The notes below the pieces were generated by a model. It searched no databases and was not told where the DNA came from. It saw only the letters and a list, made by a program, of their open reading frames with translations. From assembly GCA_965287045.1 (NCBI GenBank), contig OZ336878.1, positions 104,594,001-104,658,000 of the forward strand: a stretch of DNA of 64,000 nt, in the 5' to 3' direction. This DNA is from Carcharhinus amblyrhynchos. Taxonomy: Eukaryota. Position numbers and translations under genes: made by a program. Shown in pieces: positions 1 to 59,231 of this stretch; position 1 is the first letter of the stretch, and each line of letters opens with the position of its first letter.

Positions 1-3
1 GTT
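1..3 (-). CDS. Start of next exon of the microexon coiled-coil gene (runs off the window's left edge)
   Basis: Strong minus-strand acceptor ctcttttttctctctctgtcttgcag|AAC. Joins the 654-680 exon as G|AA = Glu, like the other exons. Confidence 0.55.
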
Positions 4-653
4 CTGCAAGACAGAGAGAGAAAAAAGAGTTCAATTGTTTTAAAATAACACCTCAGACTGAAACAGCTTTGGTTAATCGACATTATGAAAACGATCATTT
101 AACCTGGCCTATCGATTTCCGCTAATTGTTCAAGAATGCGTGTTAGAATCTGCTATTAGAACTAGTTTTTGACCGTTAGGTCATTAGAAGTCGTTTTCTT
201 TATTTAATGAGATGTTTATTTCGCTGGTTGGCAAGGACAACAACTGTTGCCCATGTCTAAATGCACTCGACATAGTGGTGAAGGATGGTCGTTAAGAACG
301 ACTGCACTCCATCAAGTGGAGGCATGGCTGTCGTGCTATTCAAAGGAAGTCCAAGGATTTTGATCCATCTTAAATGGAAGAAAAGTAACATGGAATGATA
401 TCAGATACGCAAATTATAACACGTTTCATACAATTTCGCTATCTACTTTTTGACAGAAACAATTAGCATTGTTTCCGCACGCAAAACGATAATTGCTGTA
501 TTGTCTTGACATTTCCATCATAGATTTTGTTGCAAATTGGCATTGAAAGTACTCGTGCACCATGTCAATATAATTAAGCGGACCAAAGCAGTGCAAGTGC
601 ATGTGAAAATTAAGTGCAACAAGTAATATAAATATACTTATTCCATATCTTAC

Positions 654-680
654 CTTTTTCTTTCTTGGCTAGTGATGTTT
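654..680 (-). CDS. 27-nt phase 1-1 microexon, (E)TSLAKKEK
   Basis: ttttattttgttgggcag|AAACATCACTAGCCAAGAAAGAAAAAG|gtaaga. Core heptad positions L4/K7. Confidence 0.8.
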
Positions 681-1378
681 CTGCCCAACAAAATAAAACT
701 CTATCGTCACAAAGCAGCAACGAGGCTATATAGTCGACAAAAACTGAGCATTACAAGGAATTAGGAACATTCCTTGAAAGTGACTCAGTGTTTTGAGCTA
801 ATTCTCATCATTCATTTTTATGTTAATATAGATTTATTGACTTGAGGCATTTTTATTCGTAGAATAGATTATAGACCTTGCAGTGAATGATCTGCGTGGA
901 TTTTTTTTATTTCAAAGTAATACACCAGCAAGGGAATTACTACAATTTATTTGTTAAGATATTAATTATAGTCGTTCAGATCTAAACAGTAGCCTTAAAA
1001 GTAATTATGTGGTCAAATACAATGTGCAGCAGCCGATGAGAAACAGCTAAGGAAATTTTTCAAAACATGGGATCGATTTTCAAATTTCAATCACTTGCTA
1101 CAACGTTGGATGGTTCAGATAACGGGTTCATATAATGGCCAATCCATTGTTGGTAAATGTCAAGTAGGGAAGGCGTATGATAAGAAATGGAAATTTCGGT
1201 ATTTTGTAATGATTATTTTGAAAATATTCAGCTATTGGATGTTCTATGGTGAAAAAAGCAGCCGTTAAATGTTCAACTTCATTCGTTTCTGATAAAAGCC
1301 TACAGATGTTCAGTTGCACGCTCAAACAAATATTGCGTGGTTGCAACTGTAAACAATTCAGAATTAATTTATTCATAC

Positions 1379-1405
1379 CTAACGATTCATATTTTGCCTT
1401 CAATT
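1379..1405 (-). CDS. 27-nt phase 1-1 microexon, (E)LKAKYESL
   Basis: ataattttcctttag|AATTGAAGGCAAAATATGAATCGTTAG|gtatga. L2/Y6/L9 heptad core. Confidence 0.8.
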
Positions 1406-2513
1406 CTAAAGGAAAATTATAATTTGTTTAGTCCTGTGCATCATACAACCTGAGAGAGAAAGAAAAGAGTGGAATATGATCGATCCAACAGAACATAATA
1501 GTAATATTAAAACGTAATAACTGTAGTAATGAAAAAAAGTGCTAGTTGCAGCAAACGTCCTTGGAAACTGCACACAATAGAGAAGATCATATATATTGTT
1601 TCGACTCCCTAAGAAACTAGTTGCATCATAATACTCTAAATAGGGCTTCCTTCTTCCTGCATTTGTGTCTAAATGTATTCAGCACTAACATTTTTGATGT
1701 TGTTTGCATATAACAACGTTGGAAGAAATTAGTTTCTAGTATTATTTCATCGACGTAACGATATCTGCAAATGTTTGTTGTTTCAAGTGAGAATGAAGTC
1801 CAGCATTGATGCTGAAATCTAAATTAAATGCAGAAAATGTTGCAAAGACCCAACAGGTCTGGTGGCTTGTGTGGATAGGAAAGTGTCGTAACGTTTGGAG
1901 TCTGTATGAATATTCTTTGAAGTGAAAGATATGGTGCGATGTGATGACGTACACACCATCTACACCCCCTCCCCCATTGTATAGCATCTGAGGGCTCCCC
2001 ACATTTTCTTTGAGCAAATACCCGAAAAAGCCCCGACTGCTACTAGTCTCCTCCGCCTGGCAGTACTTCATCCCTCACGAATCAGCTTCTGCTTTAACTT
2101 GTCTCATTGTTTGCAAAATAAAAGCTGCGCCCATGGGTATCTGCTTATCTTTTTGTGGTTTATGTCCAACATTCCCTGCTTCTATTCTACTCAGCCCTGT
2201 ACTCAGAAAGCTTTTTCCATTATGTTATTAGCAGCATAATCAGAGCTGAATATAAACACACACGTTGCACAAAAAATAGATATCAATACATTTCGTAATA
2301 CCACAGCATCATCACACTCCACAACTGCTGCCTGAACCAATAATCGTTGTAGCGTCCTCGCTATTTATTGAAGGACGTTATGCTACATTTAATACTTTCT
2401 AAAGACACAAAGTAGCACAATATATATAAAAAAATGCTTCACTGAACAGGCAACACCTGCAGTCGTCGTCTGGAAATGCGAACTTCAACACGATAGGTAA
2501 CTACACCTGCATT

Positions 2514-2859
2514 ATAGAATCATAGAAACCCGACAGTGCAGAAAGAGGGCCATTTGGCCCATTGAGTCTGCGCCGACCACAGTTCCACCCAGGCCCTGTC
2601 CCCATATCCCTGCATATGTCCCCTCTAATCCCGCTAACCTACCCATCACAGGATACTAAAGAGCAATTTTAGCCTGGCCAATCGACTTAACCCGCACATC
2701 TTTGGACAGTGGGAGGAAACCGGAGCACCCGCAGGAAACCCAAGCAGACATGAGGAGAATGTGTAAACTCCACACAGGCAATGACCCAAGCTGGGAATCG
2801 AACGGATGATCTTAGAGCTGTGAAGCAGCAGTGCTAACCACTGTACTATCGTGCCGCCC
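2514..2859 (-). mobile_element. HE1-type V-SINE, near full length
   Basis: Minus strand begins GGGCGGCACGATAGTACAGTGGTTAGCAC (tRNA-like A box), then GTTCGATTCC (B box), V-domain GGGTTTCCTGCGGGTGCTCCGGTTTCCTCCCACTGTCCAAAGATGTGC, and a CR1-shared tail ending TCTATGATTCTAT. Confidence 0.85.
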
Positions 2860-4399
2860 ATATTAAATTTGTCATAGATCATGTCGTCTATGGGCAAGCG
2901 AATGCGCGAACGAGAACAGCAATAATTACGAAACCCATCAATATTGGAGGTGTTCATTTAGAGGAAAACAAGAATTTCAATGCAGGAGTTCATGTGTGTC
3001 ATGGTGTCAAAATCATGGGCATCATATACTTGGTGCACAATATTCTGCAGTGGCCAGCTGTGGTCAAAGCAAATTAGAAATAAGGATGACCTGTACTGTA
3101 ATACAGGTTTGGTGAACAAGGAATCGTGGCACATTCTTTGGAAAGTGAATCCTTTCAGTGACAACATGCACATTTTCACAAACAATCGTGCGGTACTTCA
3201 GCAGGCCGTAGACCAAGGTCGCCTTTGCGTTGTTGATTATTGCATTGATGTAGCGCTTACATTTAATTGGCAAAGGGTTAGGGATCAGTATCCGAACGCA
3301 CAAAATATTTAATTTGCATGAAAAGTATTCGTGCTGATGATTTCTAGAAAACTCAATCGTTCTACACCAAGGAAGGAAATATTAAGGAGGAATACGAGGC
3401 ATAAAAATAAAGGTACACACCACTTGCCTGTCTCGACATTAAGTGCAACAAATGTGATAGACTCGTAACCGTGTGGAAATACAACGCAATAACTGAAATA
3501 GCAACAACACATACAACAAACGAGAAATTGATGCAGAAAAGTCAATGGTACCTATTCTTCAGAAAAAAAAATCGGCATCGGGACTACTGAAAGAGAAACT
3601 GATTAGCAAAATATTGTTTCGTTGGAAAAGGGGGATGGGGGACAGAGTTCGCTTGTAATGACAGTTTAAAAACATAACGGTGATGCTTATAATACAGGTG
3701 GTGCACTATCAGTTTTAATATATTGGGAAATAGAACAGTGATGCGAAAATAAAACCATGTAAGTGTGTAATGACTGGAGAGAGAGAAAAAAAGTTTCTTT
3801 GCTAAGTAAGAATTGAGTAAGATTGGACAAATGTGAAAGTCGCAGAAAAAAAACGAAGTAGAGATTAATTCCACAAATGTATTCAAAGTTGCAGGCCAAA
3901 GAAGTCAATAAACAATTGCTGTGTTTGGAGGAAGTTTAAATTGTTAAAATGCTTAATGTATTTATCTAAAAGATTAGCATGGGAAAAAAAAAGCCGCTGA
4001 AGGGAAATAAAATGACGAGAAAATGACGTCATTGTCTGTATGGGTTTCAGTAAAACATCTGGCAAAGTGTGACATTAACGACTGTTAACAAATCCAATGG
4101 AACAAGATCTTCTGATGGATTGGAAAATTGCTTTAAGAACTGAAACTTTCAAGTCTGAGAAATGTTTACTTTTTTCAGATTGAAACATTGTAGACAATGG
4201 CAATCCATTGGTCCAGCACCAGGATTTTCATATACAACATCGATACTGGGATTCCGATTAAAAAATAAATATAATGTATCTATTATAAGAATATTGGAGA
4301 TCCTGCAGACGGTAATAATCATACATATCCACTGAAAGGACATGGAACGGCGATCAGAAAAAAAAACATTTTGATGACATGAAATTCTAAACTTCGGAG

Positions 4400-5110
4400 A
4401 GTTAGTGATGCGTTTTTTATACAAAGTTAGGGGGAGAGTGAAGCAAGATCAACTGGTAACTCCCCGAAGAGTACATAGCGATTGAATTATCATAGGTCAG
4501 TCTGCATATCTCGTTGAGCTGCCGGGAAATATTGGTTAGTTACAACAACATTCAGGTCTTAGGGTCCAAAATTAGAGGAATTTCATAAAGAAGTAAGTTA
4601 TTGTGCTGAACATTCATGCCATTTAATTCAGGGCTCGAATAGATTATTTTACCCAGTACTGGTCAGCGTGCATTAGACAACATACGAATGACTCAAAGAG
4701 TTTGAAAAAGAAATTGATCATAGTGATCCCACAGTTAAGGGATTGTGGCTTCAGTGTTCTGTTGGCGAAATTGAAGGTGTTTCTTTGGAACAACGGTGTT
4801 TGGCATTGATTTGATAGCTTTTTTCACGATAATGGCAAGTGTAGGCCTGGGACGAAAGGAACCCCAGATAATGGTTTTGGATAAGTGATGCACAGTCGGA
4901 AGGGAAAAATTTTATTAATCAGCGCGTGACAGTGGCCTGGAATTTGCTGCCTACAAGGGGATGGAAGCTAGGTCAATGAAGTACGTTAACTATAAATTCG
5001 TTTTGCAGTTCATGAATATACAAATACTGTTTGGTTGATCTGTGGAATGAAAGCGAATAGAAAGCTCGACAGTGATGTGACAGTGACTCAATTGCTCAAA
5101 TAACTGTTGT
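4400..5110 (+). mobile_element. Highly decayed CR1 LINE 3' fragment
   Basis: Degenerate CR1 ORF2 C-terminal sequence (ttttattaatcagcgcgtgacagtggcctggaatttgctgcct, similar to FFTQRVV-WN-LP). Boundaries approximate. Confidence 0.5.
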
Positions 5111-5714
5111 AGTGCCTGGATCGTTCACCACATAACTCTTTCGTTAGCTGCGTCATAAATGTTTGTAACGGGTTATATTAATAGATCAAAAGAGTCCTAG
5201 TTCCTTGCATTTTAAAATTCGGTCAGCGTTATACAATAAGAGTAGCTGAATCATTTGAACTATGTAATCTGAAAACAACGGCTGGAGAGAAACGTTATAA
5301 ATAAAGGACAAATGTGAAGTTTTCGGGATGAAGCAATGTTAGAAAATGCGCATGGTGCCATAAAGAGTGAAGTAGACCTCTGTGGCTCAATGAACTTTTT
5401 CATCGATGAAAATTCTGCTAATTTACATACACTCAAATTATAACAAAAATCATCTTTCACATTATCAAGCTTATTAAAGGAGGTTCAAGGTATCCAACAA
5501 TTACGTCCTTTCGGCGCCCGACTGTAGAAATGGAGTGATGTTTCTTGAGTGAATGCATATAATTCCCGTCATTTTGGGACATTTAAGGGGAAGGCGGGTT
5601 TGTGCATGGTAAATGCATTGATTGCATTTAAACAAAACCCAGACAAAAAGACTTGTGATGAGGTGGGGTACTGGCGTTATGAAAGTAATTTAGCAAATAT
5701 TTGGGGAAAAGTAA

Positions 5715-5860
5715 GTGAGCGTCACTGGCACAGTGGTTAGCATGGCTACCTCAGAGCTCCAGGGCCCCAGTCTGTGTGAAGGCTGAACGATTTCCATTTG
5801 TCTGCAGGGGTTTCCTCCAGATGTTCCATTTTCCTCCGACCATGAGACGCCAATTATATT
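5715..5860 (+). mobile_element. Decayed HE1-type SINE 5' part
   Basis: ggcacagtggttagcatggctacctcagagctccaggg followed by a degenerate V-domain (ggtttcctccagatgttcc). Confidence 0.6.
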
Positions 5861-6109
5861 AATCCTTTTATCAACATTTAGTCCATAAGGTAATATGCCT
5901 AGGTGATTTAAAAATACCGTAAAAAAATGCTTATTTAATGTTGCGAGAATACCTGCCTCAATCAACATTTCAGATGATTTCCAAATTTTCACCACTCCTG
6001 AGTGGACACTAACTCCTCAGATTCCATCCCCCCAACAAAACCATATATTCCTTAAATTAAAAGTGCGCCTTCTGATCTCAAATAATGTTTCTCAAAGATC
6101 AAAGAGAAA

Positions 6110-8900
6110 AAAATGAACAACAAGCGGTGCAGCACAGGCACAGCTCTTAGGCCGGGCAAGCTTGTGCCGATCAAGATACCCGAAATAAATTAAAGAAAAT
6201 AACGTTCTGCCATTACTCCGTCCGCATTCCCCTATTCCCCACTTATTTCATGTACCCAGCCAGATGACTGTTAAATGTCACGAATACGTCTGTTTGCACG
6301 AGGTTCTATGACAATGCGTTTCAGAACTCGCCATTCTCTGCGTGAAAAGCTTCCCCAGCACATTTTCATAAAAAGTTCCCCTCGTACCCTGCATTAGTGC
6401 CCACCTGTAATTGATACTTGCACCCTTGGTAAACACCACTGACTATCCTCCCTGTCTATGCCTCTCATAATTTTGTGCACAATATCAGATCTTCCCTCAG
6501 CCTGTTTCTTTACAGTGAATACAATCCGATTTTATTCAGCTGTTACATGTGTTGATGTTTTTCTCTTTTACTCCGCAAGTGCGTCGGTCCACCTTGTTGT
6601 CTAACGAGGGGCATGCACACGATGGGTCGTGCGTGGGCTGCTCTTGAAAGTTCGAGAGTAGCCTAGTACTTCGCGTCGTTTGTGTATGTTTAAAACTGGA
6701 CCAGCAGATGGGCACCACAACAGCTCAGTGACTATCACTGTTTGCTGTGCAAATACATGGATTTGGGCCAGTGTCTGTGGGAGTTTGCGCATTCTCCTTG
6801 TGGTTGCGTGGGTTTCCTCCGGGTGCCCCGGTTTCCTCCCACACCCCAAACATGTGCTCTTAGGTTGATTGGTGTAACAAATTGTCCCTAAATTATTCTC
6901 CCCTTAATCTGGTTTCCAGTGGGGGTACCATAAGCATAGACATGGGTCAAGGGTGGAGGAGGAAAAACACATTGTTAAGATGGCGGCGCGGGCTCGTTGG
7001 GCCGAAGGGCCTGTTTCCCGTGCTGTGTTGTCCTTTGTTCTTTGTTCTCTCCTCATTTTCAATACACACTCTGGGTCCTGGCTGATGAAGGCAAGCATGC
7101 CATATGCTTACTTAATCACCTTGGGCATCTTTGTTGCCACACTTAGGGAACTGTGGGCGTGCACACTCAGATCACTCTGTACGCTAACATTCCAAAGGCT
7201 TCTGCCATTTACAGTATGAATGGGGCGTCGATTCCAATGATCTACCCTATTTATGCATCTTACAATTTGATATACTGCCATCAGATTACTCCCTCAGGTT
7301 CCACTGGTGATAGGTAAATAAATCCAGTCTATCCAGCTCTTAACACAGATGAACAAGTTCATCGTAGACAAAATTGCTGGTTTCCCTTTGCACATCCTCC
7401 AGCACACGCTGATAGTGTGGCAAGCAGAACTGCACATAATTCACCATCTGAGGTCGAACCGATATGCTATGATTTATACCAAGACTTTCCTATGCCCTAG
7501 CTAATGAAGGTGCACATTCTGTATGCCTTCTTCACCACTCTATCTACAGGTTCTGCCACCTTTAGGTATCTGTGGACGTGTACATCAATGTCCAGCTGTT
7601 CGGTTTATGCTCGCTAGGGACCTACCATTCATTGAATATACCTTACCCTAAATAGACCTCCAAAAATGGATAACCTCAGGCCTATCAGGGTGAAATTTCA
7701 TCTGCCACTGCTCTGCTCAACTTAGCAATGCAACATCAAAATCACCACCAATTGTCGTGTCATCCATAAATTCTACGTTTACATCCAAGTCGTAAATATG
7801 TGCAACAACCAGCAAGCGACCAGGCATCGATCCCTGTGCTGCATCACTGGTCACGTAACAAATGCAGCCCTTTTCCATCTTCACCCTTTGCTTCATACTA
7901 AAAATCAGTTTTTCATCCACTTTTCGAACTTGGTTATTTCCCTTGGGCTCTAAACTTGTTGGACCAGCGTTCTACATGGACCTTGTCCATTGCCTTTTTG
8001 AAATCCAATAAACTACATAAAATGCTACCCTCATCAATATATTTAGTTTATTTCAGAACAAAATCTCAATTATTTTAGTTAGACAGTAACTCGAACCAAC
8101 GCATCTATACTTATTATGCCTGATCAATCCTTACCATTTCAAGTGTTTATGAATCATGTCTCTCAGATGTTTTTCCTAATAACTTCCCTTTACACCAACT
8201 GGCCTGTAAGATTTGGCTGACTCCTGCTCCCCTTCTTCAATAAAGGTACCAGATTAGCTATGCTCCAGTCATCTGACTCTTCACCTGTGGTCGTTGGAAA
8301 TTTGGATATCTTCGGTAAGGGTCCTGCAAGCTCCTCCTTTACGTCCTTTAGCAGGCTGCGATGAATCTCATCAGGTCCTGGAGATTTACAATTTTCCTGT
8401 CCACGAAAACATGTAGTAACTGTCCTTTATTAACCTTAACGTGCAGTCTATCTAGCTCTTTGTGTCCTTCGTTATTTTTATAAATCTCTTCATTATCCCA
8501 ACTGAAACTTCCAGCTATTATATTTTCCTCCTTAGTGAATAAAAACGAACAAATAAATTTAAATTCTCAGCTAAATCCTCTGGCTCCAGACACAGATTGC
8601 CCCTTTGGCTCAAATGGGCAGAACTTTTCCTTGGCCATGACATCGCTCTTTATATACTTATAAAATGCCTTTGATTTTACTTAATCATATCTGCCAATTA
8701 GATATCCTGCTTCCTCTTTGGCCAGCGAATCTCTCTCTTTGGAGCCCTCTTCCCACAAGGACCCTGTGGTTCGGAAGTTCCTCTTCATTTTTCGGTGCCC
8801 TCTTTGTATCTTATGATCCTTTGTTTATCTTACCAAAATGTGGATATACCTTGACATACAGGTTTCCCAGGAAGCGCCTCCCTTCCCCTTCAATCTTGAA
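6110..8900 (-). mobile_element. Cluster of decayed CR1 LINE fragments, interrupted by a + strand SINE
   Basis: Remnant RT motifs in ORF 7717..7920 (VTSDAAQGSM…FMDDTTIGG) and reverse CR1 3' sequence. Boundaries approximate. Confidence 0.6.
6740..7050 (+). mobile_element. HE1-type V-SINE (V-domain and tail)
   Basis: gcgtgggtttcctccgggtgccccggtttcctcccacaccccaaacatgtgc … gggccgaagggcctgtttcccgtgctgt, with tail ttgttctttgttct. Confidence 0.75.
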
Positions 8901-8919
8901 GATATACGATGAAGGCTGT

Positions 8920-11156: not shown

Positions 11157-11180
11157 CTTTCAATTGTTTCATCTTCTCCG
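11157..11180 (-). CDS. 24-nt phase 1-1 microexon, (A)EKMKQLK
   Basis: ttgcttccggtttatcag|CGGAGAAGATGAAACAATTGAAAG|gtaata. Counterpart of 42218-42241. Confidence 0.75.
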
Positions 11181-11687: not shown

Positions 11688-11714
11688 CGAGTTGTTTTCG
11701 ACATTTTACCACCT
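11688..11714 (-). CDS. 27-nt phase 1-1 microexon, (E)VVKCRKQL
   Basis: ctctccttttaattcag|AGGTGGTAAAATGTCGAAAACAACTCG|gtaaagta. The 3' end CAACTCG|gtaaagta is identical to that of exon 43028-43054. Confidence 0.78.
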
Positions 11715-13316: not shown

Positions 13317-13352
13317 CGCTATTTTCTGATACTCTCTTGACTCTTACATTTC
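13317..13352 (-). CDS. 36-nt phase 1-1 microexon candidate, (G)NVRVKRVSENS (hinge)
   Basis: ttttcctttacgtattcag|GAAATGTAAGAGTCAAGAGAGTATCAGAAAATAGCG|gtgaga. Its 3' end resembles 58789-58824 (ATAACG|gtaagaag). Confidence 0.55.
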
Positions 13353-15591: not shown

Positions 15592-15624
15592 CTTCAGTTG
15601 GGGACAGCTTCAATCTGTCCAATT
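15592..15624 (-). CDS. 33-nt phase 1-1 microexon candidate, (E)LDRLKLSPTE
   Basis: ttgactttgtttacag|AATTGGACAGATTGAAGCTGTCCCCAACTGAAG|gtaaca. L2/L5 continue the heptad register from 21756-21782, then a Pro breaks it. Confidence 0.6.
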
Positions 15625-15764
15625 CTGTAAACAAAGTCAACTCAATCAGCTCTTTCATAACACAGGAAGGACAAGTTGAGTTCAAATTTCTCACATCTAA
15701 GGTTATTTCTTCTTTTGTTTTAAGGCGACATGTGACCCTTTGCGGTCGTTTACAGGAAAGAGAT

Positions 15765-21755: not shown

Positions 21756-21782
21756 CGGCGTCTTTCTCATTAAGTTTGAGCT
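21756..21782 (-). CDS. 27-nt phase 1-1 microexon, (E)LKLNEKDA
   Basis: ggttttcttttgtag|AGCTCAAACTTAATGAGAAAGACGCCG|gtgagt. L4/K7. Confidence 0.85.
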
Positions 21783-21981: not shown

Positions 21982-22017
21982 CTGCAATTGTTAGCTTGCG
22001 CTGGAAATTACGGAGTT
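21982..22017 (-). CDS. 36-nt phase 1-1 microexon, (E)LRNFQRKLTIA
   Basis: Long T-tract…ttag|AACTCCGTAATTTCCAGCGCAAGCTAACAATTGCAG|gtatca. L2/F5/L9/A12. Found where the heptad register predicted a 36-nt exon. Confidence 0.75.
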
Positions 22018-24432: not shown

Positions 24433-24459
24433 CATCGTCTTTCTCTTTCAGGAGTGTGT
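24433..24459 (-). CDS. 27-nt phase 1-1 microexon, (N)TLLKEKDD
   Basis: tatgttttcctcaacag|ACACACTCCTGAAAGAGAAAGACGATG|gtgtgt. Shares GAGAAAGACG with 21756-21782. Confidence 0.75.
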
Positions 24460-25158: not shown

Positions 25159-25194
25159 TATTGTCGTCTATAGTTCGCTGCATTGTTTCAGCTT
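25159..25194 (-). CDS. 36-nt phase 1-1 microexon, (E)AETMQRTIDDN
   Basis: ccattttcattcattttag|AAGCTGAAACAATGCAGCGAACTATAGACGACAATA|gtgagt. A2/M5/I9/N12. Confidence 0.8.
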
Positions 25195-25579
25195 CTAAAA
25201 TGAATGAAAATGGAAACATTTGTCTGATTACTTTTCATAAAAAAAAGTTGAATTAGGTACGAAATTTATGAAAATAAATAAATGAACCGTCGGAATTAGA
25301 TATTAGAAATACATTGTGCGGTAATACAATGTGCAATTATCCGCTTAGCATCAGAGAATCTAGAATCAGTTGCTGACGAGGGCTCTGACACAACTGATTC
25401 TGTACCGACACGTTATAAACACTAGACTTCACGCCTAATGCCATCTACCAGCACATGACCCATGGCCTTGAATGTTATGACGCACCGACTCCGTATCTAC
25501 GTACTTTTAATGGCTAAGATGCAACCCGCCTGCACCATCCTCCGAAGCAGAGTATTCCAGAACATCAAGGCCCTCTGGG

Positions 25580-26792
25580 CACAAAGAAACAACAAAGAAA
25601 ATTTCAGCACAGGAACAGGCCCTTCGGCCCTCCAAACCTGCATGGCCATGCTGCCCGACTTAACTAAAATCTCCTACACTCTATCCCTCTATTCCCACCT
25701 CATTCATGCACTTGTTCAGACTCTCCTTAAAAGTCATTGCCGTGTCCGCTTCCACTACTTGCCCCGGCCACAAGTTCCAGGCACCCACTACTCTCTGTGT
25801 AAAAAAAAAATCTGCCTCATACATCTCTGCTAAAGCTTGCTCCTCAATCTTAAACATATGCCCCCGAGTAATTGGCTCTTCCATTCTTAGAAAAAGCTTC
25901 TGACTATCCATTCCGTCCATGCCTCTCATAATCTTGGAGACTTCTATCAGGTCTCCCCTTAACCTCCGTCGCTCCAGTGAGAACAAACCAAGTTTATCCA
26001 ACCTCTCCTCATGGCTAATGCCCTCAAACCAGGCAACATCCTGGTAAATCGTTTCTGTATCCTCTCCAAAGCCTCCACATCCTTCTGGTAGTGTGGTGAC
26101 CAGAATTGAACACTATATTCCAAGTGTGGCCGAACTAAAGTTCTAAAGTTCTAATGTGACTTGCCAGTTTTTAAACTCAATATCCCGGCTGATGTAGGCA
26201 AATATGCTATATGCCTTCTTGACTAACTTCTCCACTTGTATTGCCACTTTAAGTGACCTGTGTACGTGTGCACCCAGATCCCTTTGCCTATTAATACCCC
26301 GAAGAGTTCCGCCATTTACTGTATATTTCCTACCTCTATTGCCTCACATTTGTCAGGATTAAACTCCATTTGCCATTTCTTCGCCCAAGTCTCCAACCGA
26401 TCTGTATCCTGTTGTATCCTCCGAGAGTCCTCATCAATATCGAGAAATCCACCAACCTTTGTGTCATCCACAAACTTACTAATCAATCCAGTTATATTTT
26501 CCTCCAAATCATTTATATATATTACCAACATGAAAGTTCTCAGCACTGATCCCTGAGGAACACCACTTGTTAAGGCCCTCCATTCAGGAATACACCCTTC
26601 CAATGTCTTCTTTGACAGAGCTAGTTTTCTATCCAACTTGCCAGCTCACTTCTGATCCCATGCAAATTCACCTTGTGCACCAGTCTGCATTGAGAGACTT
26701 TGTCAAAGGCCTTAGTGAAATCCGTATAAACAACATTCACTATCCCACCCTCATCAATCATCTTCGTCACTTCCTCGAAAAACTCGATCCAA
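25580..26792 (-). mobile_element. CR1 (HER1-like) LINE, 5'-truncated, RT fragmented
   Basis: ORFs 26621..26806 (VVYTDFTKAFDKV), 26316..26636 ([10 protein letters not shown]…FVDDTKVGG) and 25681..26001 (LGLFSLERRRLRGDLIEV). Confidence 0.9.
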
Positions 26793-27659
26793 TGGGTTTT
26801 TACCAAAATCCACCCTAAACCTCTGATACCTCACTTTGAACCTATGTCCCCTCTAGATCTGCCCTTCCAATAAGGGGAACAATTGCTCCTTACCCATTCT
26901 GTTCGTTTGACCATTCCTTGTACACTTCCTTGCAGCCCAAGTTACTAAGCACCATTGTTAACCACCCAGCCAATTTTTGTGTCATGCGCAAACTTACCAT
27001 ATCACGGAATGTTGTGTTATCATTTCTGTTCTTTCTTCAACTATGTCTCTTGACATGTCACACTTCCCTCTGTCAAACATGGCCTGCAACCCGATGCTTT
27101 TTGCTGCAATGCGAATGTCATCCAAGTAAGGCTTGGCCTTACTTCCTTGAAACTTAATACAGCTGTGCTCCATCTGATTTGTTCGTTTTACTATATAATT
27201 CTCTGCCTTTAGTCTGATAACAGTCGATGTCCCCTTCGCTGACAAATTAGTTTGGACGTCTCGCAAACAGCACCAGTAAAACCCGCAAGGTGTTAATCCC
27301 GCTCTTCTTCCAATGTAGACGATCCCGCTTGTACAGGTCCCATTTTACCCAGAAATTGTCCCAGTGATCCAGGAATTTAAAACCCTCCAACCTGCACAAA
27401 CTTCTGTCTTATTCTCATATTTCTGCGCTCGCTAACATGTGTCAATGCAAACATGAAAACAGTGACGTCCTGCTTTTTATAGACTATTGCCTAACTGCCT
27501 GAAATTCTTTATAGGAAATATAAAAAAAAATTATCTTTTGAATGGATTTAAAATGTCAGCGATGGATTCTCAGTGAGACATTTTTGCCCTCTTTGCTCAG
27601 GTGGTGAAAGGAGGGCCGCAGGAACTGTGGCTAGCAAGGAAGGGAAATGATACATTCAC

Positions 27660-29384: not shown

Positions 29385-31330
29385 ATAAGAGTATAAGACC
29401 ATAAGATATAGGAGCAGATTTAGGACATTCGGCCTGTTGAATCTGCTCTACCAATAAATCATGGCTGATCGCTTTTCCTCCCGCCTTTTCCCCGTAGCCT
29501 TTCATCCCCTTACACATCAAGATTATATCCATCTTAGTCTTAAATATGCTCAGTGGCCTGACACCATCTTCTGTGGTAGTGAATTCCATAGATTCACCGC
29601 TCACTGGTTGATGAATTTTCTCCTCATTTCTGTTCTAAAGGGTCGGCTCTTATTTCTGAGGTTGTCCCCTCGAATCTTTGCCTCCCCTAATAATGAGAAC
29701 ATCTTCCCCACGTCCGTTCTACCCTGGCCTTTCAGTATTCTGTAAGCTTCAATACGATCTCCTTCCTTCTCACCTCCTTCATGTACAAAAATGCTATCAT
29801 CAAACGCTCCTCGTACATGCAGATTTTTATTCCTGGGACCATTTTTGTGAAAATCCTCTGGACTTTTTCTAGGGCCGCCACATGCTTCCTTAGATCCGGG
29901 GCCCAAAATTACTCACAATACTCCAGGTGTGGTCTTACCAGAGCCTTATAAAGTTTAATTCTAGCCCTCTCGAAATGAATGCTAAAATTGAATTTACCTT
30001 CTTATCAACGCATCCTGCTCATTTACCTTTATAAAATGCTGAAATACAACTCCTAAGTCTCTTGCATTTCTGAATTCTGGATTCGCTCCACATTTCGAAA
30101 ACATTCTACACCTCAATTCATTCTTTGAGTGTGCATAATCTCACACTTTCCTACATTGTATTCCATCTGACACTTCTTTGTCAAATGCGGTAACGTGTCC
30201 AAGTCCTTCTGCAGGTTCACCACATCCTCAATACTGCCTATCCCCCCGCCTGTCTTTGTATCAGCTGATAATGTCGCCAACATGCCCTCATTACCTTCAT
30301 CTGGATCATTGATGCATAAAGTGACAATTTGTGGTCCCAATTGAAACATATAAGATGAGTAGAGGTTTAGATAGGGTGGATAGTGATAGCCTTTTTCCTC
30401 GGATGGAGAAAGCTAGCACGAGGGGGCATGGCTTTAAATTAAGGGGGGGTAGCTACAGGACGGATGTCAGGGGTAGGTTCTTTACCCAGCGGGTGGTGAG
30501 GGATTGGAATGCCCTGCCTGCTGCAGTTGTAAATGCGTCTAGTTTGGGGGCGTTTAAGAGATCTCTGGATAGGTTTATGGACGAAAAGGGATTGGTATAT
30601 GCTAGTGGGTCATTGTTTTTGTAACTGGTCGGCGCAACATCGTGGGCCGAAGGGCCTGTTCTGCGCTGTAATGTTCTATGTTCTATGTTCTAATATTGCC
30701 TCCAGTACAAATTCACTCATCATTTGCTGCCATCCTCGAAAGGGTCCTTTTATTCCCACTCTCTGCCTTCTGTTAGTCAACCAATCTTCTGTATAACATC
30801 TTGGACTCTTACCTTATTCAACAGCTTCCTGTGTGGTATGTTGTGAAATGTCTTCTGGAAATCCAAGTAGATAACACCCAATGGCTCTTCTTTGTCCAAT
30901 CTGCTCATTATCTCTCCAAAGGATTATAAAATTGTTGTCAGGTATTCCCTCCTTTTCACGAAGCCATGCTGACTTCGCTCTATTCTTCCGTTCACTTCCA
31001 AGTGTTCCAAGATCTCTTCCGTAGTACTGACACTAAAATCATACTGACGACCAACACCAGGCTAATCGGCCAATAATTTCAAATCCTTTGCCCCCGTTTC
31101 TTCTTAAACATGAATGTTATGTTGGCGATTTTGAAGTATCAAAGATTTCCACCCCCACCCCTACCGCCAGCCCCCCCACGCCAAAGATTCCTGACAGATC
31201 AGCACTAATATCTCCACTATCCCTTTAGCTAGATTCTGTGGACCGAATGGTTTCTTTCTGCACTGCAGGGATTATATGACATTTTTTCATTCTATGGTTT
31301 TCTTCAGAATCCCACGTCGTAGTCCATCAG
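29385..31330 (-). mobile_element. Decayed CR1 LINE, host of a nested insertion
   Basis: Tail ataagaccataaga at the left end. ORFs 29601..29906 and 30113..30349 (ADTKTGG…QMEYNVGKCEIMH). Confidence 0.8.
30341..30691 (+). mobile_element. Young 5'-truncated CR1 3' fragment nested in an older CR1
   Basis: Uninterrupted IETYKM…TRGHGFKL…FFTQRVVRDWNALP, 3' UTR, and (ATGTTCT)3 tail. Confidence 0.9.
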
Positions 31331-34873: not shown

Positions 34874-34900
34874 CCTGCACTTTACTTTTGAACTGAGCTT
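34874..34900 (-). CDS. 27-nt phase 1-1 microexon, (E)AQFKSKVQ
   Basis: tattgtttgcag|AAGCTCAGTTCAAAAGTAAAGTGCAGG|gtaaga. F4/K7. Confidence 0.8.
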
Positions 34901-39125: not shown

Positions 39126-39152
39126 CTAGATTCTCTATAGTTGTTTTGTGCT
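39126..39152 (-). CDS. 27-nt phase 1-1 microexon, (E)HKTTIENL
   Basis: tattctttatatcag|AGCACAAAACAACTATAGAGAATCTAG|gtagga. Counterpart of 1379-1405. Confidence 0.75.
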
Positions 39153-42217: not shown

Positions 42218-42241
42218 CTTTATTTGCTTTGAAAGTTGCAA
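42218..42241 (-). CDS. 24-nt phase 1-1 microexon, (V)ATFKANK
   Basis: gtttttcgctttaccag|TTGCAACTTTCAAAGCAAATAAAG|gtaaat. Confidence 0.7.
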
Positions 42242-43027: not shown

Positions 43028-43054
43028 CGAGTTGCAAACGAAGCATATCACTTT
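43028..43054 (-). CDS. 27-nt phase 1-1 microexon, (E)SDMLRLQL
   Basis: tctctgttcaacttcag|AAAGTGATATGCTTCGTTTGCAACTCG|gtaaagta. Confidence 0.75.
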
Positions 43055-43235: not shown

Positions 43236-43314
43236 CTGAAACAGCAAATACTTGAAGGAAAACTAATTAAATGATCATAGTTGACTTGCTTCCTGATGAA
43301 TACAACTTTCTTAC

Positions 43315-43332
43315 CCAAAGCAGTAGGTTTCA
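43315..43332 (-). CDS. 18-nt phase 1-1 microexon candidate, xKPTAL
   Basis: tttccttattcggtttgcag|TGAAACCTACTGCTTTGG|gtaaga. Strong sites, 79-nt downstream intron. Confidence 0.5.
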
Positions 43333-50557: not shown

Positions 50558-50699
50558 CACACACAAGATGATAGCGAGATAGGCAATGTAGAAATGCCCT
50601 ACGTCTATATCTCTGCAAAACAGATATTCCGTTCTGGATTCTGTTGAGGGTAAGTGCCACACAGAGGAAATCAGCAATGGGCATATTCGTTGCGCCACA

Positions 50700-52330: not shown

Positions 52331-52959
52331 TTTCTACGTTTCTACGTCAATCTGGCCGCTAATACTCTGGTTAAATGAAAACTGTGCTGCCCAGCTTCCT
52401 CGGACTGTAGTGTGATTATTTGCTGAGATACCTTGAATTGTTCTGTTGCCAGTTCAGATGCGTCTGAGAGCGTTCTGGAAATCTTGAGACATAATTGAGA
52501 AAGACATTTTCACCTCCAGAGTCACACAACTTATCTGAATGAGTGGCACGTGCTGCACTTTATTCAGTGGGCGTGAGGTGATGCTGGGCGTGGTCGTTGT
52601 CCATGGACCAATGAGAAAGGCATGCCATCAATCGACTAATGTGCGCTTTCCCCAGTCATAAATCACAAGAATAATAACCACTTTGCCTGATCCATGTGCT
52701 GTCAGCTAATTACGCCCTGATCGTTTCATTTATTTTACAGTGACACATATAGTCGTTTCCTAGAAAAGAAACAAGCAAACTATGTTTAGGAAAACTGAGC
52801 ATGTTTTCAATGGAAACCGGTACAGTGAGTAACTTCTTCACTGAAGCAGGGTGATGGAAGAGAACTTCAATACTTTCCAGCAAAATCTGAACTTTATACC
52901 CTCCCATTTAGTCTCCTGCCAACTACAGTGCCTGTGTCGTTCCAGGTAACAAACGTTGC

Positions 52960-53305
52960 TCTTGTCTGAGCACTTCAGCCTCAATTCGAACATTTTCTTA
53001 ACGTCCATCAATTTCATTTTCCCGTAAATTAACTTCGCGTGTCAGTTTTCTTTCGTTGTTCTTTCGGGTAGGACAATTTATATTTTTTTCTTCCCTCAAA
53101 GAGTTGTGAATCTCTGGAATTCCCGGCCCATTTAGACAGTTGAATCTTCCTCGTTGAATGTTTTCAAGGCAATTAAAGAACACTTTTTGAACACTAAGTT
53201 CATTAAGGGTTAAGATGAGCGGGCGGGCAAGTGGAGCCGAGTCCGTGAAAAGATCGGCCATGTTCTTATTAAACGGCAGTGGAGATTCGAGACCCTATTC
53301 CTGCA
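52960..53305 (-). mobile_element. Mixed CR1 3'-end fragments
   Basis: agagttgtgaatctctggaattc … agatcggccatg…ttattaaacggc (CR1 3' UTR motifs). Orientation is partly mixed. Confidence 0.45.
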
Positions 53306-54023
53306 AGTAGTTTAAAAGTTTTTATGTATCATCTGTCAAACACAATCCAGCAAACCCTAGGCCTTACCGTACGCCATTTTAAATTTTCTGAATTTATGTT
53401 CACATCTTCTGGTATAAAGCACAGACATCGAAAGTACCAGGTTTGTGATGTCATAGTGACTTCAGTGCGCTTCTGAAAGAGGTGTCCACACCACATCAGC
53501 TTTTTCCAATTTATACAGTCAGCGGCGGAGTCCAAGGTAACTGAGATTAAATTGGATTCAATTCTTTTTTCTCAAAGTACACAAAGTGCATTTCTAATAA
53601 CCTACCAAAATTAAGGACCAGGCGGGTATTATTCGCTAAATAATATAAAAAAAACGATTTTGTTCTCTCGTTAACATTGGGTTTCACCACGAGATGCTGT
53701 CCAGATAATCTGTGATTTTATTCTTCCAAGGCCATTTCATTCATCCCTTTCCTCGTGCTAACCTTTCTATTTCTCATATGAATTCACGATTTTTTTTCAA
53801 TTTCCTTTCTAATTTAAGAAAGAAACAATAATTCGAATCTTTTCTTCAACAACTGTTCCACTGGCATTGTCCTAGCTAAAATGTTGTCCTTCTCCAGAAT
53901 ATCCTTAGCTCTATTGATGATAATCTTGGCAGTGGGGATGTACCAGCATGACATTTTAATCAACTTCCAGTGACAATTCTGTGCTTTTCTAGAGGAATCT
54001 GTACAAACATTTAAGTTAATTAA

Positions 54024-55490
54024 CGGCTAATGTTACGCCGTTGTTTAAGAAGGGTGCCAGGCAAAAGGCGGGGAATTATAGGCCGGTTAGTTTAACGTCT
54101 GTGGTAGGTAAAATGTTAGAATCCGTCATTAAGGAGGAAATTGCGAGGCATCTTGAAGGGAATTGCTTGATAGGGCAGACGCAACACGGTTTCATTAAAG
54201 GGAAGTCGTGTCTGACAAATTTACTGGAGTTCTATGAGGATGTGTCTAGGGCAGTGGATAGAGGAGAGCCGGTGGATGTGGTCTTTCTGGATTTTCAGAA
54301 GGCGTTTGACAAGGTACCTCACGAGAGGTTATTGCAGAAGGTCAGGGGACATGGAGTTGGGGGTAGGGTGTTAGCGTGGATAGAGGATTGGTTGTCAAAT
54401 AGGAGGCAGAGAGTGGGGGTCAATGGGTGCTATTCGGATTGGCGGTTGGTGACTAGTGGGGTGCCCCAGGGGTCGGTGCTGGGGCCTCAGCTATTTACCA
54501 TTTATATAGATGATCTGGAGGAGGGAACCGAGTGCAGGGTGTCGAAATTTGCTGATGACACCAAGATTGGGGGAAAGGCAAATTGTGCGGAGGGTGTGGA
54601 GAGTCTGCAGAAGATCTAGATAGGCTGGGCGAATGGGCCAGGAAATGGCAAATGGAATTTAATGTTGGCAAGTGTGAGGTGGCCCACTTTGGTAGGAAGA
54701 ATGGTAGGAATGACTATTACTTACGTGGCGAAAAACTGCAGCAGGCGACGGTGCAGAGGGACCTCGGGGTCCTTGTGCATGAGTCGCAAAAACCCAGCTT
54801 GCAGGTGCAGCAGGTGGTCAGGAAGGCGAATGGGATGCTGGCCTTCATAGCGAGGGGGATTGAATATAAAAGTAGGGAGGTCTTGCTGCAGCTCTATAGG
54901 GCATTGGTGAGGCCGCAGCTGGAGTACTGTGTGCAGTTTTGGGCGCCGCACCTGCGCAAGGATATTTTGGCCCTGGAGGGAGTGCAGAGGAGGTTTACTA
55001 GGCTGATACCGGAGTTGAGGGGATTGAGCTATGAGGAGAGGCTGAATAAACTAGGCTTGTACTCGTTAGAGTTTAGAAGAATGAGGGGAGATCTCATTGA
55101 GACGTATAAGATGATGAATGGGATGGATAGGATAGAGGTGGAGAGACTCTTCCCGCTCAAAAAAGACAGTAGGACTAGGGGGCACAGCCTCAAGATAAAG
55201 GGGAGGCGGTTTAGAAAGGAGTTGAGGAGGAACTTCTTCACTCAAAGGGTGGTGAATCGCTGGAATTCTCTGCCCGTTGAAGTGGTGGAGGCTGCCTCGC
55301 TAAATATTTTTAAGAAGCGGGTTGATGGGTTCTTGATAAGAGAGGGGATTAAGGGTTATGGGGAGAGGGCGGGAAAGTGAAACTGAGCCACGACAGATCA
55401 GCCATGATCTTATTGAATGGCGGGGCAGGCTCGAAGGGCTAGATGGCCTACTCCTGCTCCTATTTCTTATGTTCTTATGTTCTTATGTTC
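54024..55490 (+). mobile_element. Young 5'-truncated CR1 LINE with near-intact RT (one frameshift near 54612)
   Basis: ORFs 54041..54619 ([40 protein letters not shown]) and 54583..55380. (TCTTATGT)n tail, flanked by TTAATTAA at 54016-54023 and 55491-55498. Confidence 0.97.
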
Positions 55491-56990
55491 TTAATTAAAA
55501 TATTCAACTGGAACAATCCTATGGCTTCTCGTTTAATAATTAGTGTTTTAAGTCAGTATGTGTGTGATGTTTGCAGTTTTCCGGTCACCTCATAATAATG
55601 GGCAAATAATACAAACTGAGAATCAAATGATTATTTTCTTCAGCCTTCGTCCACGACAGCACTGTATGAATTGAGGCAGTGCGGCTGGTTGTATTTTATC
55701 TGTTTTCAAGTTGTTGCACTTATCATTAAAATCTTTATGATCAGTTTCTTTGCCAATTATCTGATACCAGCCTCGAAACAAAACAGATAAGCAACCTTGG
55801 AAATGTTTCAATACGGCGAGATTGGATCAGGAAGCAAATAAGTGCATAATCAAAGAAGGCCAGACTGTACTTGCAACGTTGTAACCATTTCATAGAAAGG
55901 GCGGCAATGATGGATGCTCAATTATCGACAGAACATGAGAGTCATGTCTGTTGCAAATATTTAATGCCAAAATGTTCTGGTCCAGGTCTGCTCTCACTCT
56001 ATTGACATTGAATTATTAAGCACTGAAATTCAAAGTCGTGCATTTTCCATGCCGCTAAACTGCATTTTATTGCACTTCGATAACTGTTCCCTACTATGTG
56101 GCAACGGACTGGCTTTAATCCATGAGAACATGATCAAAAAATTACACCTTGGATAGCTCCAGTAACGAACAAGGAAATCCTTTGGAATACATTTAGAATC
56201 TTCTTAAAATTCTCAGTTCATTATAGCAGTATAGTATATTATTTCCAATAGGTCTTGCATGACTTGATCACACGGTCTTAAATACTGAGCAACTAGTTAA
56301 TATTTTAAGAAGTTCCCACTCTCGCCAGTATTTTCCTTTCCTTACTATCAGTTGAAGAATTCTCCGATGTGTCCTCAATGCAATAGTAATTCATTATACT
56401 ACATGAAATACCAATTATATTAGTTATCGAATAGTCTTGTCAAATAATTCCAAAGGTGGTATATTTAGATTTGTAATGTGCTGACAAAGTTTGCATAAAC
56501 ACATGTTTACAATACTGTTTGACTGTCCTTATTATAGATGGATGGACAAAAAAAAACAAAGAAGAGGGTCGGATGAGATTGTCTGAGTTTTTAGTCTCGC
56601 CCTTTTCAAACGGAGGTGATGCATTCTGGTTCAGGTTAATAAATAAGTGGGAAGATTTGTTAGCTTCCAACTTGTATCATCGAGTCGATCCTGTTGAAGT
56701 GTGCTTATATCCTATCCCTTGGACACAATGTTCTGGGTTTTCATTGTATGCGAGATAAGCAGAAACCTATTCAATGTTGCGTATAATATTTAGTAGAAAG
56801 GCATTTCTCTGAATGGGCATCTGTTAAATAAGCAACTGCTTTACCTACTGCTTTCAGAAGTGCTGCTCCTTTTCCTATTAATTGAATATATTTTACTATA
56901 TGTTTACATGTGCTGTAAAAGAAATTTAATTTTGATTAGTTAGTGTCCTGTGGATTGTAGTTTTCTGATTTATGAGAGGCAATCTGAACA

Positions 56991-57304
56991 TAAGAACATA
57001 AGAAATAGGAGCAGGAGTAGGCCATCTAGCCCTTCGAACCTGCCCCGCCATTCAACAAGATCATGGCTGATCTGAAGTGGCTCCGTTCCACTCTCCCGCT
57101 TTCTCCCCATAACCCTTAATCGCATTGCCTAGCAAAAACCTATCTACCCGCGTCTTAAATATATTTAGCGAGGTAGCCTCAACCACTTCAACGGGCAGAG
57201 AATTCCAGAGATTCACCACCCTTTGAGTGAAGAAGTTCCTCCTCAACTCCGTTCTAAACTGCCCCCCCCGCCCCCCCCCCATCTTGAGGCTGTGCTCTCT
57301 AGTC
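56991..57304 (-). mobile_element. Short young CR1 3' fragment, same subfamily as 54024-55490
   Basis: ELRRNFFTQRVVNLWNSLPVEVVEA and a near-identical 3' UTR. Flanked by CTGAACA at 56984-56990 and 57305-57311. Confidence 0.92.
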
Positions 57305-58788
57305 CTGAACAGTATTACAAACGTTTAAGGTGGAGTTAATTTTTTCCGGGCTCAGAGTGCATTTTGTTTTTATTGGACTGGAGGTGACCTGTGAATATGT
57401 TCATCAGTTAAAAGACAATTGGAATGATACTCAAGCGTACAATATTGTTCTTCTCCAAATAGCTCCAAGGATAATTATGTTGGCATATATGTTCACGAGA
57501 CATGATTTTCAGCAGAATGTTCCTCAGACCATTTTTATGGCAGTCAAGTTAAGAATTGAAATCGAGTTATCTGGGTTTTTTTGGATGCTTCGTGTGCCTG
57601 AAGCTATGGGCGCTGGCTGCGCAGTCAAAGGTAACACATCTTTTCTTTTTGATAGTGTTTACATAAAGTGGCTAAGAATCAATATTTCAGTCTCAAAATC
57701 TAGGGTCGAAAATGTTCCCTTACATTTTTGATAAATGTGGCAATAATAACGTTGTATAGATATCAGTTATTCTCCTGCAATTTCTTTATTGCCTTTGTCC
57801 AATATTTATAAAGTGATACCAAGGTATTCAAAATGCATGCTTGGTTTTTTTTTCTGCCCACATATTCACATTCTAATTGTTCAGGCACTTTTTCCCTCAT
57901 CTGTCGAAATTTACTTTCACTTGTCTGAATATGAGTGTGAGCAATCTACGTAGTTTCAAAAGGTCTGGGATCTGAATTTTATAGCTTGAGCATGCCACTC
58001 ATGAAATAATGCCTACTTTCCTGGTTATTGTTTAACGTTTCTTCCCAGGATCTTACGTTGGTTCTGAAGTCCAAGGGCCTTGCTCCACTTATTTGCAAAC
58101 ACACACTCTGGCCATGACTGAATTCTTCCTCGAAGCCAATTCCATCTAAGTTCATTTTTTTGGACCTTGCGAGGATAGCATTTCTTTATAAATGAAGACT
58201 GTGTATTGAACGAGGTGCCTTAACGATATTTAACACTTCATGAAAAATAATCGATGAAAAAGTAGTTTCGAATAATGAAGAATTCGCAATGGAGTGTATA
58301 GTGTTAGTACAGAAAAGCGAGGACGCTCTTTATTTCTGCACTTAAGCAAATCCCTCCTTCAAATACTTTTGAAATAATGTCCACACATCTGAGTGCCACA
58401 CGTTCGAATTCAACTTTTTGTCATAGAAAGGGCACAATTTCTTTGCAGTACTTTCGAGAACCTGAAAGGTAGGCAGTGTTGAATTGCTTTCTTTGGAATA
58501 TCTAAGTTAATTGAGATTTGTGTGAAAATTATATAAAAAAATGAAAGGCTAGATGTAGAGATAAACTACTAGTGCTACCAGAATCGAAGACAAAGGTTCC
58601 TGCCTCAAATTTCCCTCAATTACAACTTTGGACAGGCTTGGAAGTTAAGGCTCCAGTTTCCCCTTTACTCCTGCTTCTACAGAAACGGGATTCACGCGAA
58701 ATTTGCTGACATATGTGGCTGCACATTACGTTTTAATATTATTTTCTCTGAAAATACGAATTGGTGAACTTTTATTTTAGCTTCTTAC

Positions 58789-58824
58789 CGTTATCTTTTC
58801 GCAAACTCTCGCATTTTTCGAACG
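58789..58824 (-). CDS. 36-nt phase 1-1 microexon, (A)FEKCESLRKDN
   Basis: ggttttttaaacttctcag|CGTTCGAAAAATGCGAGAGTTTGCGAAAAGATAACG|gtaaga. Confidence 0.75.
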
Positions 58825-59204
58825 CTGAGAAGTTTAAAAAACCGGTCTTAGTCGTGCCATTTCCAAAATCCTGAACAGCCTTTCCATTGAGGAACAGCCT
58901 TTCCACATTCAGGTAAGTGTCTTCTAGGTGGAGAGCAGAAATGAATTCTGCGGCCACGTTTTCGTTCCTGAATTTACCTTCAATTATCTCTAAATTGTAC
59001 AACAATTCCACGATAGCCTTTCCTTACTGCCATTTTTAATAAAACGGTAAAATCTAATTTTGTGCCTTACAATGTCATATTGCTTCAATGCATTGTACCT
59101 GATTACTGAGTTCTTTGTCTAAAAGTTTGCATTGCTGAGGCAGCAAGCAACAGGGCTAAGTTGTTAATAATCAAAATGTAATTCTCCGAATCCCAGATTT
59201 TTAC

Positions 59205-59231
59205 CTTCAACTGTTTCGTTCACCTTTGCCT
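59205..59231 (-). CDS. 27-nt phase 1-1 microexon, (E)AKVNETVE
   Basis: atgattattcgacag|AGGCAAAGGTGAACGAAACAGTTGAAG|gtaaaa. Same class as ELKLNEKDA and EAQFKSKVQ. Confidence 0.65.

Follow-up and report, generated by a model that had tools for sequence, protein, structure and literature searches.

A hidden micro-exon gene of Carcharhinus amblyrhynchos that probably encodes a long soluble coiled-coil rod

Long heptad-repeat regions assembled from very short exons are known from chicken BG genes. These proteins combine an IgV domain and a transmembrane (TM) segment with 13–36 exons of 21 (or 24) nucleotides (nt) and are described without a B30.2 domain, and the zipper protein is a soluble BG tail controlling the actin-myosin interaction (PMC4046983, PMC8813856). 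The micro-exon genes (MEGs) of Schistosoma consist mostly of symmetric coding exons of ≤36 nt that can be skipped in frame (PMC8293314). Here we analyzed a stretch of 64,000 nt from the 2.9 Gb genome of the shark Carcharhinus amblyrhynchos (contig OZ336878.1, here C9; positions 104,594,001–104,658,000), referred to as the window. An earlier note on this DNA had proposed a hidden minus-strand gene segment built from micro-exons, which it read as the tail of a butyrophilin/BG-like receptor. We find that the segment belongs to a large gene, termed gene A. With a probability of about 0.6 its product is a soluble coiled-coil rod, 800 or more residues long, that likely starts at a short acidic tyrosine-motif head and has lost the B30.2 tip still kept in a neighboring paralog, gene B. 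Gene A likely belongs to an undescribed family of B30.2 genes and not to the butyrophilin receptors.

The exon set used here is a reconstruction; the earlier note gave no exon list. All coordinates and junction motifs it named are present on the minus strand, and the reconstructed set yields both of its residue strings letter for letter. The window contains eighteen whole phase-1 exons of 18–36 nt (Table 1), and a 19th begins inside it with its first 3 nt. Seventeen of them fall within 654–59231, comprising the 14 exons of 24, 27 or 36 nt already announced and the 18-, 33- and 36-nt ones suspected to be hinges. The 36-nt exon at 63950–63915 and the 24-nt exon starting at base 3 had been missed. 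Hinges of 48 nt had been suggested as well; none of seven candidates of that length is among the pairs conserved with gene B, and the likeliest (43235–43188) was rejected as it lies outside these pairs and finds no room in the catshark protein. As claimed, the spliced exons stay open, giving 181 codons without a stop from 19 exons, with E/K/Q/R accounting for 40% and Glu for 12 of 18 junction residues. In a generic splice-site scan of the window, candidate lengths peaked at 27 and 36 nt, and did so on the minus strand alone. Open phase-1 candidates of 24, 27 or 36 nt numbered 16 on the minus strand and 1 on the plus strand, the mean of 100 shuffles being 2.6 and the maximum 8. Training a model of splice sites and composition on 109 exons from outside the window led to the same exon set.

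The window exons sit in the middle of gene A, which contains about 80 micro-exons in 335 kb, from +163.7 to −171 kb (offsets count from the window). Minus-strand micro-exons of the same kind continue across 1.66 Mb. They make up a same-orientation tandem cluster in which at least four paralogs are distinguished: D (beyond +958 to +834 kb), C (+778 to +221 kb), A, and B (−234 to −639 kb). In regions that include exons of its training set, the model called 23, 79, 68 and 110 minus-strand exons for D, C, A and B, with 0, 12, 11 and 3 on the plus strand, and almost none in the gaps (2 between C and A, 2 between A and B, 1 in the third gap). Its minus-strand calls over the 1.66 Mb include 132 exons of 27 nt, 78 of 36 nt, 25 of 24 nt and 5 of 21 nt; the model was trained on 27- and 36-nt exons, and the untrained scan gives the same peaks.

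Genes A and B are colinear, exon by exon. AG, GT and length are kept in B for 16 of the 17 exons of 654–59231, the exception being the counterpart of 11714–11688, which is without an acceptor. Of the 65-kb region around the window only 16.6 kb align to B, the introns being 66% identical with 1.7 indels per 100 nt. This intron-level divergence predicts 0.11 kept per exon, so that 16 of 17 corresponds to P of about 1e-14. The ratio of nonsynonymous to synonymous divergence (dN/dS) between A and B is 0.39 (bootstrap 0.23–0.63) for the 17 window exon pairs and 0.46 (0.36–0.58) for 72 pairs. Both genes are equally distant from catshark (66.1 vs 66.3% over 564 residues; private matches 78 vs 79). 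Taken with the concentration of damage at the 3’ end described below, the equal distance suggests that gene A is truncated yet has remained under selection.

The closest proteins to the gene are from catsharks, in agreement with the elasmobranch gene proposed earlier. A profile of the in-frame head exon found three catshark proteins among 33 candidates, and the SPRY domain of B found a fourth. XP_072329363.1 from S. torazame can be chained in order to 15 of the window's 19 exons; 73 of the 132 residues compared are identical, and 12 of its 14 junctions are exactly one residue apart, as phase-1 splicing requires. It is without the exons at 11714 and 11180, and about 6 of its residues seem to be missing from gene A. 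In S. canicula, XP_038671248.1 stops at the homologue of the exon at 59231 and XP_038671249.1 starts at the homologue of the base-3 exon; the window therefore represents what is left out between these neighboring models. If catshark models are joined by overlap, a protein of about 1,500 residues would result. XP_038671249.1 tracks gene B exon by exon as far as the SPRY exon. Conservation, whose absence from related species the earlier note would have taken as refutation, was found in paralog B as well as in the catshark model. Sharing head motif and exon order, with identities of 55% in the window exons and 63% in SPRY, the three catshark proteins are likely orthologues; the records are partial models with the automatic names ‘uncharacterized’, ‘CENP-E-like’ and ‘A33-like’. 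No paper citing the three accessions was found in the literature searched (mostly papers outside subscription), and the family is known here from two catshark species and this genome.

We assessed whether the spliced product has the periodicity of a coiled coil. The earlier note described an unbroken 3-4 core pattern; its strings were reproduced exactly, but ‘unbroken’ was overstated, since only 10 of the 17 core residues are L/I/V/M/F. The period of the window string is 3.48, a value reached by 33 of 500 shuffles. Longer catshark stretches gave a period of 3.52 that was reached by 0 of 500 shuffles in two of the four stretches tested, which supports the reading as a helical rod built from micro-exons. 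Inner positions 1, 4 and 8 are hydrophobic in 77, 83 and 76% of the 78 model-called 36-nt exons. A low-confidence AlphaFold single-sequence model of XP_038671249.1 with a mean predicted local distance difference test score (pLDDT) of 55 shows helix over most of residues 2–761, and long helices broken by linkers are predicted. Comparison of A, B and catshark shows turnover of exons.

The first coding exon of gene A is located at +163.7 kb. C, A and B each possess a homologous head exon with the motif M-A-x-P-V-D-E-Y-[IM]-N-I-G-T; a genome search found only these three loci. The head exon is 132 nt long, phase 1-1 and open, with an acceptor. Residues D, E, Y, N, I and G are invariant in the three paralogs, and the motif is present in three catshark proteins. 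Its Y-x-N matches the Grb2 SH2 pattern, given as pY-X-N-X (PMC3787023, PMC6435016); the tyrosine is a candidate phosphorylation site. A donor about 1.6 kb upstream is conserved in A and B. If it is used, a stop lies directly before the head exon of B, and the head-exon Met is therefore the likely start, so that the protein likely begins with the DEYxNIG tyrosine motif. The catshark models start at the head exon or just before it.

Ig and TM exons had been expected beyond position 64000, and a scan of the flanks for IgV, IgC and TM had been suggested; the upstream scan found no such exon. No Ig, RING or B-box Pfam match was obtained in 78 minus-strand open reading frames (ORFs) of ≥72 residues upstream of A, nor in 77 of the 92 minus-strand ORFs of ≥62 residues upstream of B, where ORFs beyond the gap were omitted. 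Motif scans over 0.66–1.66 Mb revealed no Ig, TM or RING exon, and no spliceable TM exon was seen near the head exons. For C2-set_3, the butyrophilin IgC domain, all 87 genome candidates were scored without a match in the cluster or on C16; matches lie on C46, C53 and elsewhere. The V-set search of the genome gave none in the cluster among the 150 of 1794 candidates scored. The three catshark models contain no hydrophobic segment, the maximal 19-residue hydropathy being 1.0–1.1. A conserved block at +184 kb turned out to be a repeat.

At the other end of the gene, paralog B terminates in an intact SPRY exon (PF00622, E 1.4e-9), and the catshark ortholog also ends in SPRY (PF00622). The terminal B30.2 exon predicted downstream by the earlier note thus exists intact in B and catshark, but is frameshifted in gene A. 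Here the SPRY exon at −204.7 kb is 68% identical to that of B, carries several frameshifts and a stop, and together with a remnant of the 3’ untranslated region (UTR) closes the gene. Up to the last shared exon B has 81 exons, which in A are intact in 74 cases, damaged in 2 and unaligned in 5. Beyond it B has 38 more, not one of which is intact in A (34 unaligned, 4 damaged); one further candidate outside the counted set looked intact. We prefer this count, which is fuller, to a Fisher table (2/78 vs 6/7, P 4e-7) that drops B exons without an aligned homologue in A and one doubtful row. The 3’ third of gene A has decayed and its B30.2 end is lost. Read-through past the last intact exon of A (−170.9 kb) hits a stop within 9 codons, and poly(A)-like hexamers lie about 130 and 1,500 nt from the start of this exon. 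After genes C or D no SPRY remnant was found.

We compared the SPRY domain of B to others in the genome. Its closest relatives are a locus at C9:106.38 Mb and six loci on C16, and three of these, taken with longer flanks, carry similar micro-exons. In an unrooted tree of 27 rows, none from bony vertebrates, B groups with the catshark protein, the C9:106.38 Mb locus and all six loci on C16 in a single clade (100/99). Separate from it are nine rows linked to IgC, a single annotated TRIM, and eight rows presumed to be TRIMs because they lack IgC. Among PDB sequences the SPRY profile matches BTN3A1 best, with 104 bits vs 96 for TRIM21; Foldseek, using a low-confidence SPRY model (pLDDT 57), places TRIM21 and TRIM7 above butyrophilins. 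An Atlas search returned generic SPRY, and no Pfam PRY match was found in these domains. The SPRY beta-sandwich is supported for B and its relatives by Pfam, PDB profile, fold search and Atlas, not for gene A’s own product. The domain is B30.2-like and assignable to neither the BTN nor the TRIM family. The Atlas search of XP_072329363.1 gave generic coiled-coil clusters only. The locus is flanked by dense SPRY (presumed TRIM) clusters at C9 96–112 Mb, and a V-set cluster lies at 84–85 Mb; we presume that this region may be related to the major histocompatibility complex. C46 and C53 harbor butyrophilin-like gene clusters of IgC with downstream SPRY, one with IgV, IgC and a few short exons, another with a TM exon.

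These data bear on how the window exons are to be read. As the cytoplasmic tail of a butyrophilin/BG-like membrane receptor, with Ig and TM exons upstream, they would follow a known order, since heptad micro-exons followed by B30.2 correspond to the butyrophilin tail plan (PMC8813856). The BTN3A1 match also favors this reading, as do the acceptor of the head exon and the open frame before its Met in A. Yet no Ig, TM or IgC match occurs upstream, the catshark models are without TM, and the SPRY clade is separate from the IgC-linked, butyrophilin-like genes of this genome, with the Foldseek ranking pointing away from butyrophilins. Only 29 kb separate the SPRY remnant of A from the head exon of B, and minus-strand ORFs of 62 or more residues in between carry no such domain. 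We therefore regard the receptor as quite improbable. Hardly more can be said for a single, far longer transcript comprising C, A and B, or some of them, with the symmetric head exon used internally. Length, phase, open frame and acceptor of this exon would permit it, and a terminal SPRY remnant is missing after C and D; the remnant closing A, the start of the catshark models and the nearly empty C–A and A–B gaps render it a shade less probable still. That the segments are chance AG..GT pairs or cryptic exons derived from repeats draws on the abundance of short AG..GT candidates and on a strong-scoring 42-nt site at 30854 that contains a stop and is part of a high-copy repeat. This explanation is refuted by paralog conservation, the catshark chain and a dN/dS below 1, in addition to the enrichment in strand and length.

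A weightier alternative, which we judge unlikely though well worth considering, is that gene A is a recent pseudogene that lost its 3’ third long ago, was functional for a time and has since died, leaving B as the working full-length gene. Several observations weigh against a working rod gene, the first of which, like the frameshifted SPRY exon, speak for this alternative. Upstream of the window the exon at +132.7 kb is without a donor, and the next one at +128.6 kb is 26 nt long with splice scores that are still usable (6.7/5.7); its inclusion would shift the frame. The deletion is also present in DNA run X1, which has no splice joints and behaves as DNA of a relative that is 1.8% (about 2%) diverged. 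The acceptor of a putative 5’ UTR exon is GG in A vs AG in B. The periodicity of the window is marginal, being reached by 31–33 of 500 shuffles, and so is that of the homologous catshark stretch (period 3.78, 37 of 500). The 72 pairs behind the dN/dS of 0.46 had been selected for being intact in A and B alike. Ahead of the head exon the frame of A is open for about 29 codons, and its start codon is thus an inferred one. Finally, the catshark records are predicted models, and in this species the gene is known from DNA alone; predicted models of the RefSeq type usually rest on RNA-seq. On the other side, all 18 whole window exons of A are open with AG/GT, and no rate excess against catshark is seen. 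Death before the split from X1 predicts 4–5 further lesions, whereas 1–2 are seen (P 0.04–0.2, weak). The two damaged exons adjoin and correspond to one 36+27 (63-nt) module in B, and joint skipping of the damaged 36+26-nt pair would keep frame and heptad phase. Otherwise the damage is concentrated at the 3’ end. We favor a truncated rod gene over a dead one.

If gene A and its relatives encode rods, 36- and 27-nt exons would pair into modules of 21 residues or three heptads, and chains of modules would form long parallel coiled coils interrupted by short linker exons. Since every exon is symmetric, skipping, loss or duplication would alter the length of the rod without a frameshift, and rod length may be set by skippable exons. 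In full-length members such as B the rod would keep two B30.2 ligand-binding domains as a pair at a long distance from the head. The DEY[IM]NIG of the head fits the Grb2-SH2 pattern, and the whole would act as a long phosphotyrosine-switched adaptor. As a rod-only chain the gene A product might homodimerise, or pair with B-type chains and change their valency; alternatively its rod may bind the cytoskeleton, like the zipper protein derived from chicken BG.

More tentatively, the cluster may be part of an undescribed B30.2 family of giant soluble rods in cartilaginous fish, with at least eight SPRY loci and rod-only copies on at least two chromosomes, encoded almost entirely by 27- and 36-nt exons, in which exon skipping and turnover act as a molecular ruler and rod-only chains serve as decoy or spacer partners. 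This broader picture is possible rather than probable. If true, rod length and the number of tips would be adjusted along the span from a phosphotyrosine head to a B30.2 sensor. The family would then represent, among vertebrates, the equivalent of micro-exon genes, and would have reached the BG/zipper design by a route of its own. The literature searched, mostly papers outside subscription, yielded no description of the family; parts of the proteins are already on record as misnamed predicted models. The new points are that a start lacking Ig and TM carries a conserved tyrosine motif, that some copies in the tandem cluster lack B30.2, that SPRY domains from two chromosomes form a clade of their own, and that one catshark model runs across the window. 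With this analysis the structure is settled for a gene family whose annotation is fragmented and mislabeled, as in one likely catshark ortholog that is split into ‘CENP-E-like’ and ‘A33-like’ models with the stretch of the window left out. It adds a third B30.2 lineage in cartilaginous fish beside butyrophilins and TRIMs. Because one cluster holds copies with and without B30.2, it provides in addition a natural experiment on the role of long heptad tails that lack an Ig head; for chicken BG this role is still an open question.

Table 1. Phase-1 exons of gene A in the window, in transcript order
Feature	Position	Strand	Support
36-nt exon	63915..63950	−	AG/GT and length kept in paralog B; chained to XP_072329363.1; missed by the earlier note
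27-nt exon	59205..59231	−	kept in B; chained to catshark
36-nt exon	58789..58824	−	kept in B; chained to catshark
18-nt exon, linker	43315..43332	−	kept in B; fits catshark gap, gene A copy unchained
27-nt exon	43028..43054	−	kept in B; chained to catshark
24-nt exon	42218..42241	−	kept in B; chained to catshark
27-nt exon	39126..39152	−	kept in B; chained to catshark
27-nt exon	34874..34900	−	kept in B; chained to catshark
36-nt exon	25159..25194	−	kept in B; B copy chained to catshark, A copy not
27-nt exon	24433..24459	−	kept in B; chained to catshark
36-nt exon	21982..22017	−	kept in B; chained to catshark; one silent difference in DNA run X1
27-nt exon	21756..21782	−	kept in B; chained to catshark
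33-nt exon, Pro-containing linker	15592..15624	−	kept in B; chained to catshark
36-nt exon, non-heptad linker	13317..13352	−	kept in B; chained to catshark
27-nt exon, weakest support	11688..11714	−	intact here; acceptor lost in B; not in catshark model
24-nt exon, possibly skippable	11157..11180	−	kept in B; not in catshark model
27-nt exon	1379..1405	−	kept in B; chained to catshark
27-nt exon	654..680	−	kept in B; chained to catshark
24-nt exon running off the window	first 3 nt at 1..3	−	chained to catshark; homologue opens XP_038671249.1

Further features were noticed in the window and the cluster. The 42-nt AG..GT site at 30813–30854 on the minus strand, with strong splice scores, an in-frame stop and a position inside a high-copy repeat, is not conserved in B; it could be a poison exon or noise. 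Introns contain fragments of long interspersed nuclear elements (LINEs) and other high-copy repeats at 54020–55028 and about 25300–27000, and a 21-nt candidate at 54972–54952 recurs in LINE copies on both strands and does not belong to the gene. Within gene A just over three tandem copies of a 6.8-kb unit, 92% alike, lie at C9 about 104,518,000–104,539,000 (−55 to −76 kb). Each copy carries a 21-nt exon candidate, which indicates recent exon multiplication, and the five B exons without an aligned homologue in A fall at this stretch. Another intronic region of gene A (C9 about 104,507,000–104,516,000, −78 to −87 kb) has long ORFs as well as a hydrophobic stretch and is presumably a long terminal repeat retroelement or endogenous retrovirus. 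Gene C contains at least 14 near-identical 27/30-nt exons at C9 about 105,003,000–105,125,000 (+409 to +531 kb), which are rich in Asp, Met and Arg and not heptad-like. In gene B, exons matched to the catshark protein at −560,409, −565,446 and −565,997 use GC donors. Twelve codons in an intron of gene B (C9:104,201,623–104,201,658, −392.3 kb, minus strand), set in an exon-like AG..GT frame, match the N-terminus of XP_072329363.1 with 9 identical residues (E 1.7e-4), possibly by chance.

Compared to known systems, gene A and its paralogs resemble chicken BG in forming a tandem same-strand cluster with many small exons for a heptad tail, where architecture alone was compared. They differ in having about 80–120 exons mostly of 27 or 36 nt, in that no Ig or TM was found and in that some members keep B30.2; tail exons of 21 nt, sometimes 24 nt, are the rule in BG, whereas the model called only 5 of 21 nt here. 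Butyrophilins (BTN/BTNL, ERMAP) likewise have a short-exon heptad region, followed by a terminal B30.2/SPRY exon that here is intact in B and catshark and frameshifted in gene A, but in the present genes we found no IgV, IgC or TM, and they show a far longer rod and a SPRY outside the IgC-linked rows; an IgC-linked gene of C46/C53, followed from IgC to SPRY, showed only a few short exon candidates. With TRIM-B30.2 proteins they share a cytoplasmic coiled coil with B30.2 and a location in the SPRY-rich C9 region, but no RING or B-box was found, the rod is made of micro-exons, the SPRY clade is separate and a Pfam PRY match is lacking. Schistosoma MEGs are the nearest architectural precedent, the likeness being one of architecture only, with homology neither shown nor expected, and they encode short host-exposed parasite proteins unlike the shark rod. 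For the rod-only gene A the zipper protein is the nearest functional precedent.

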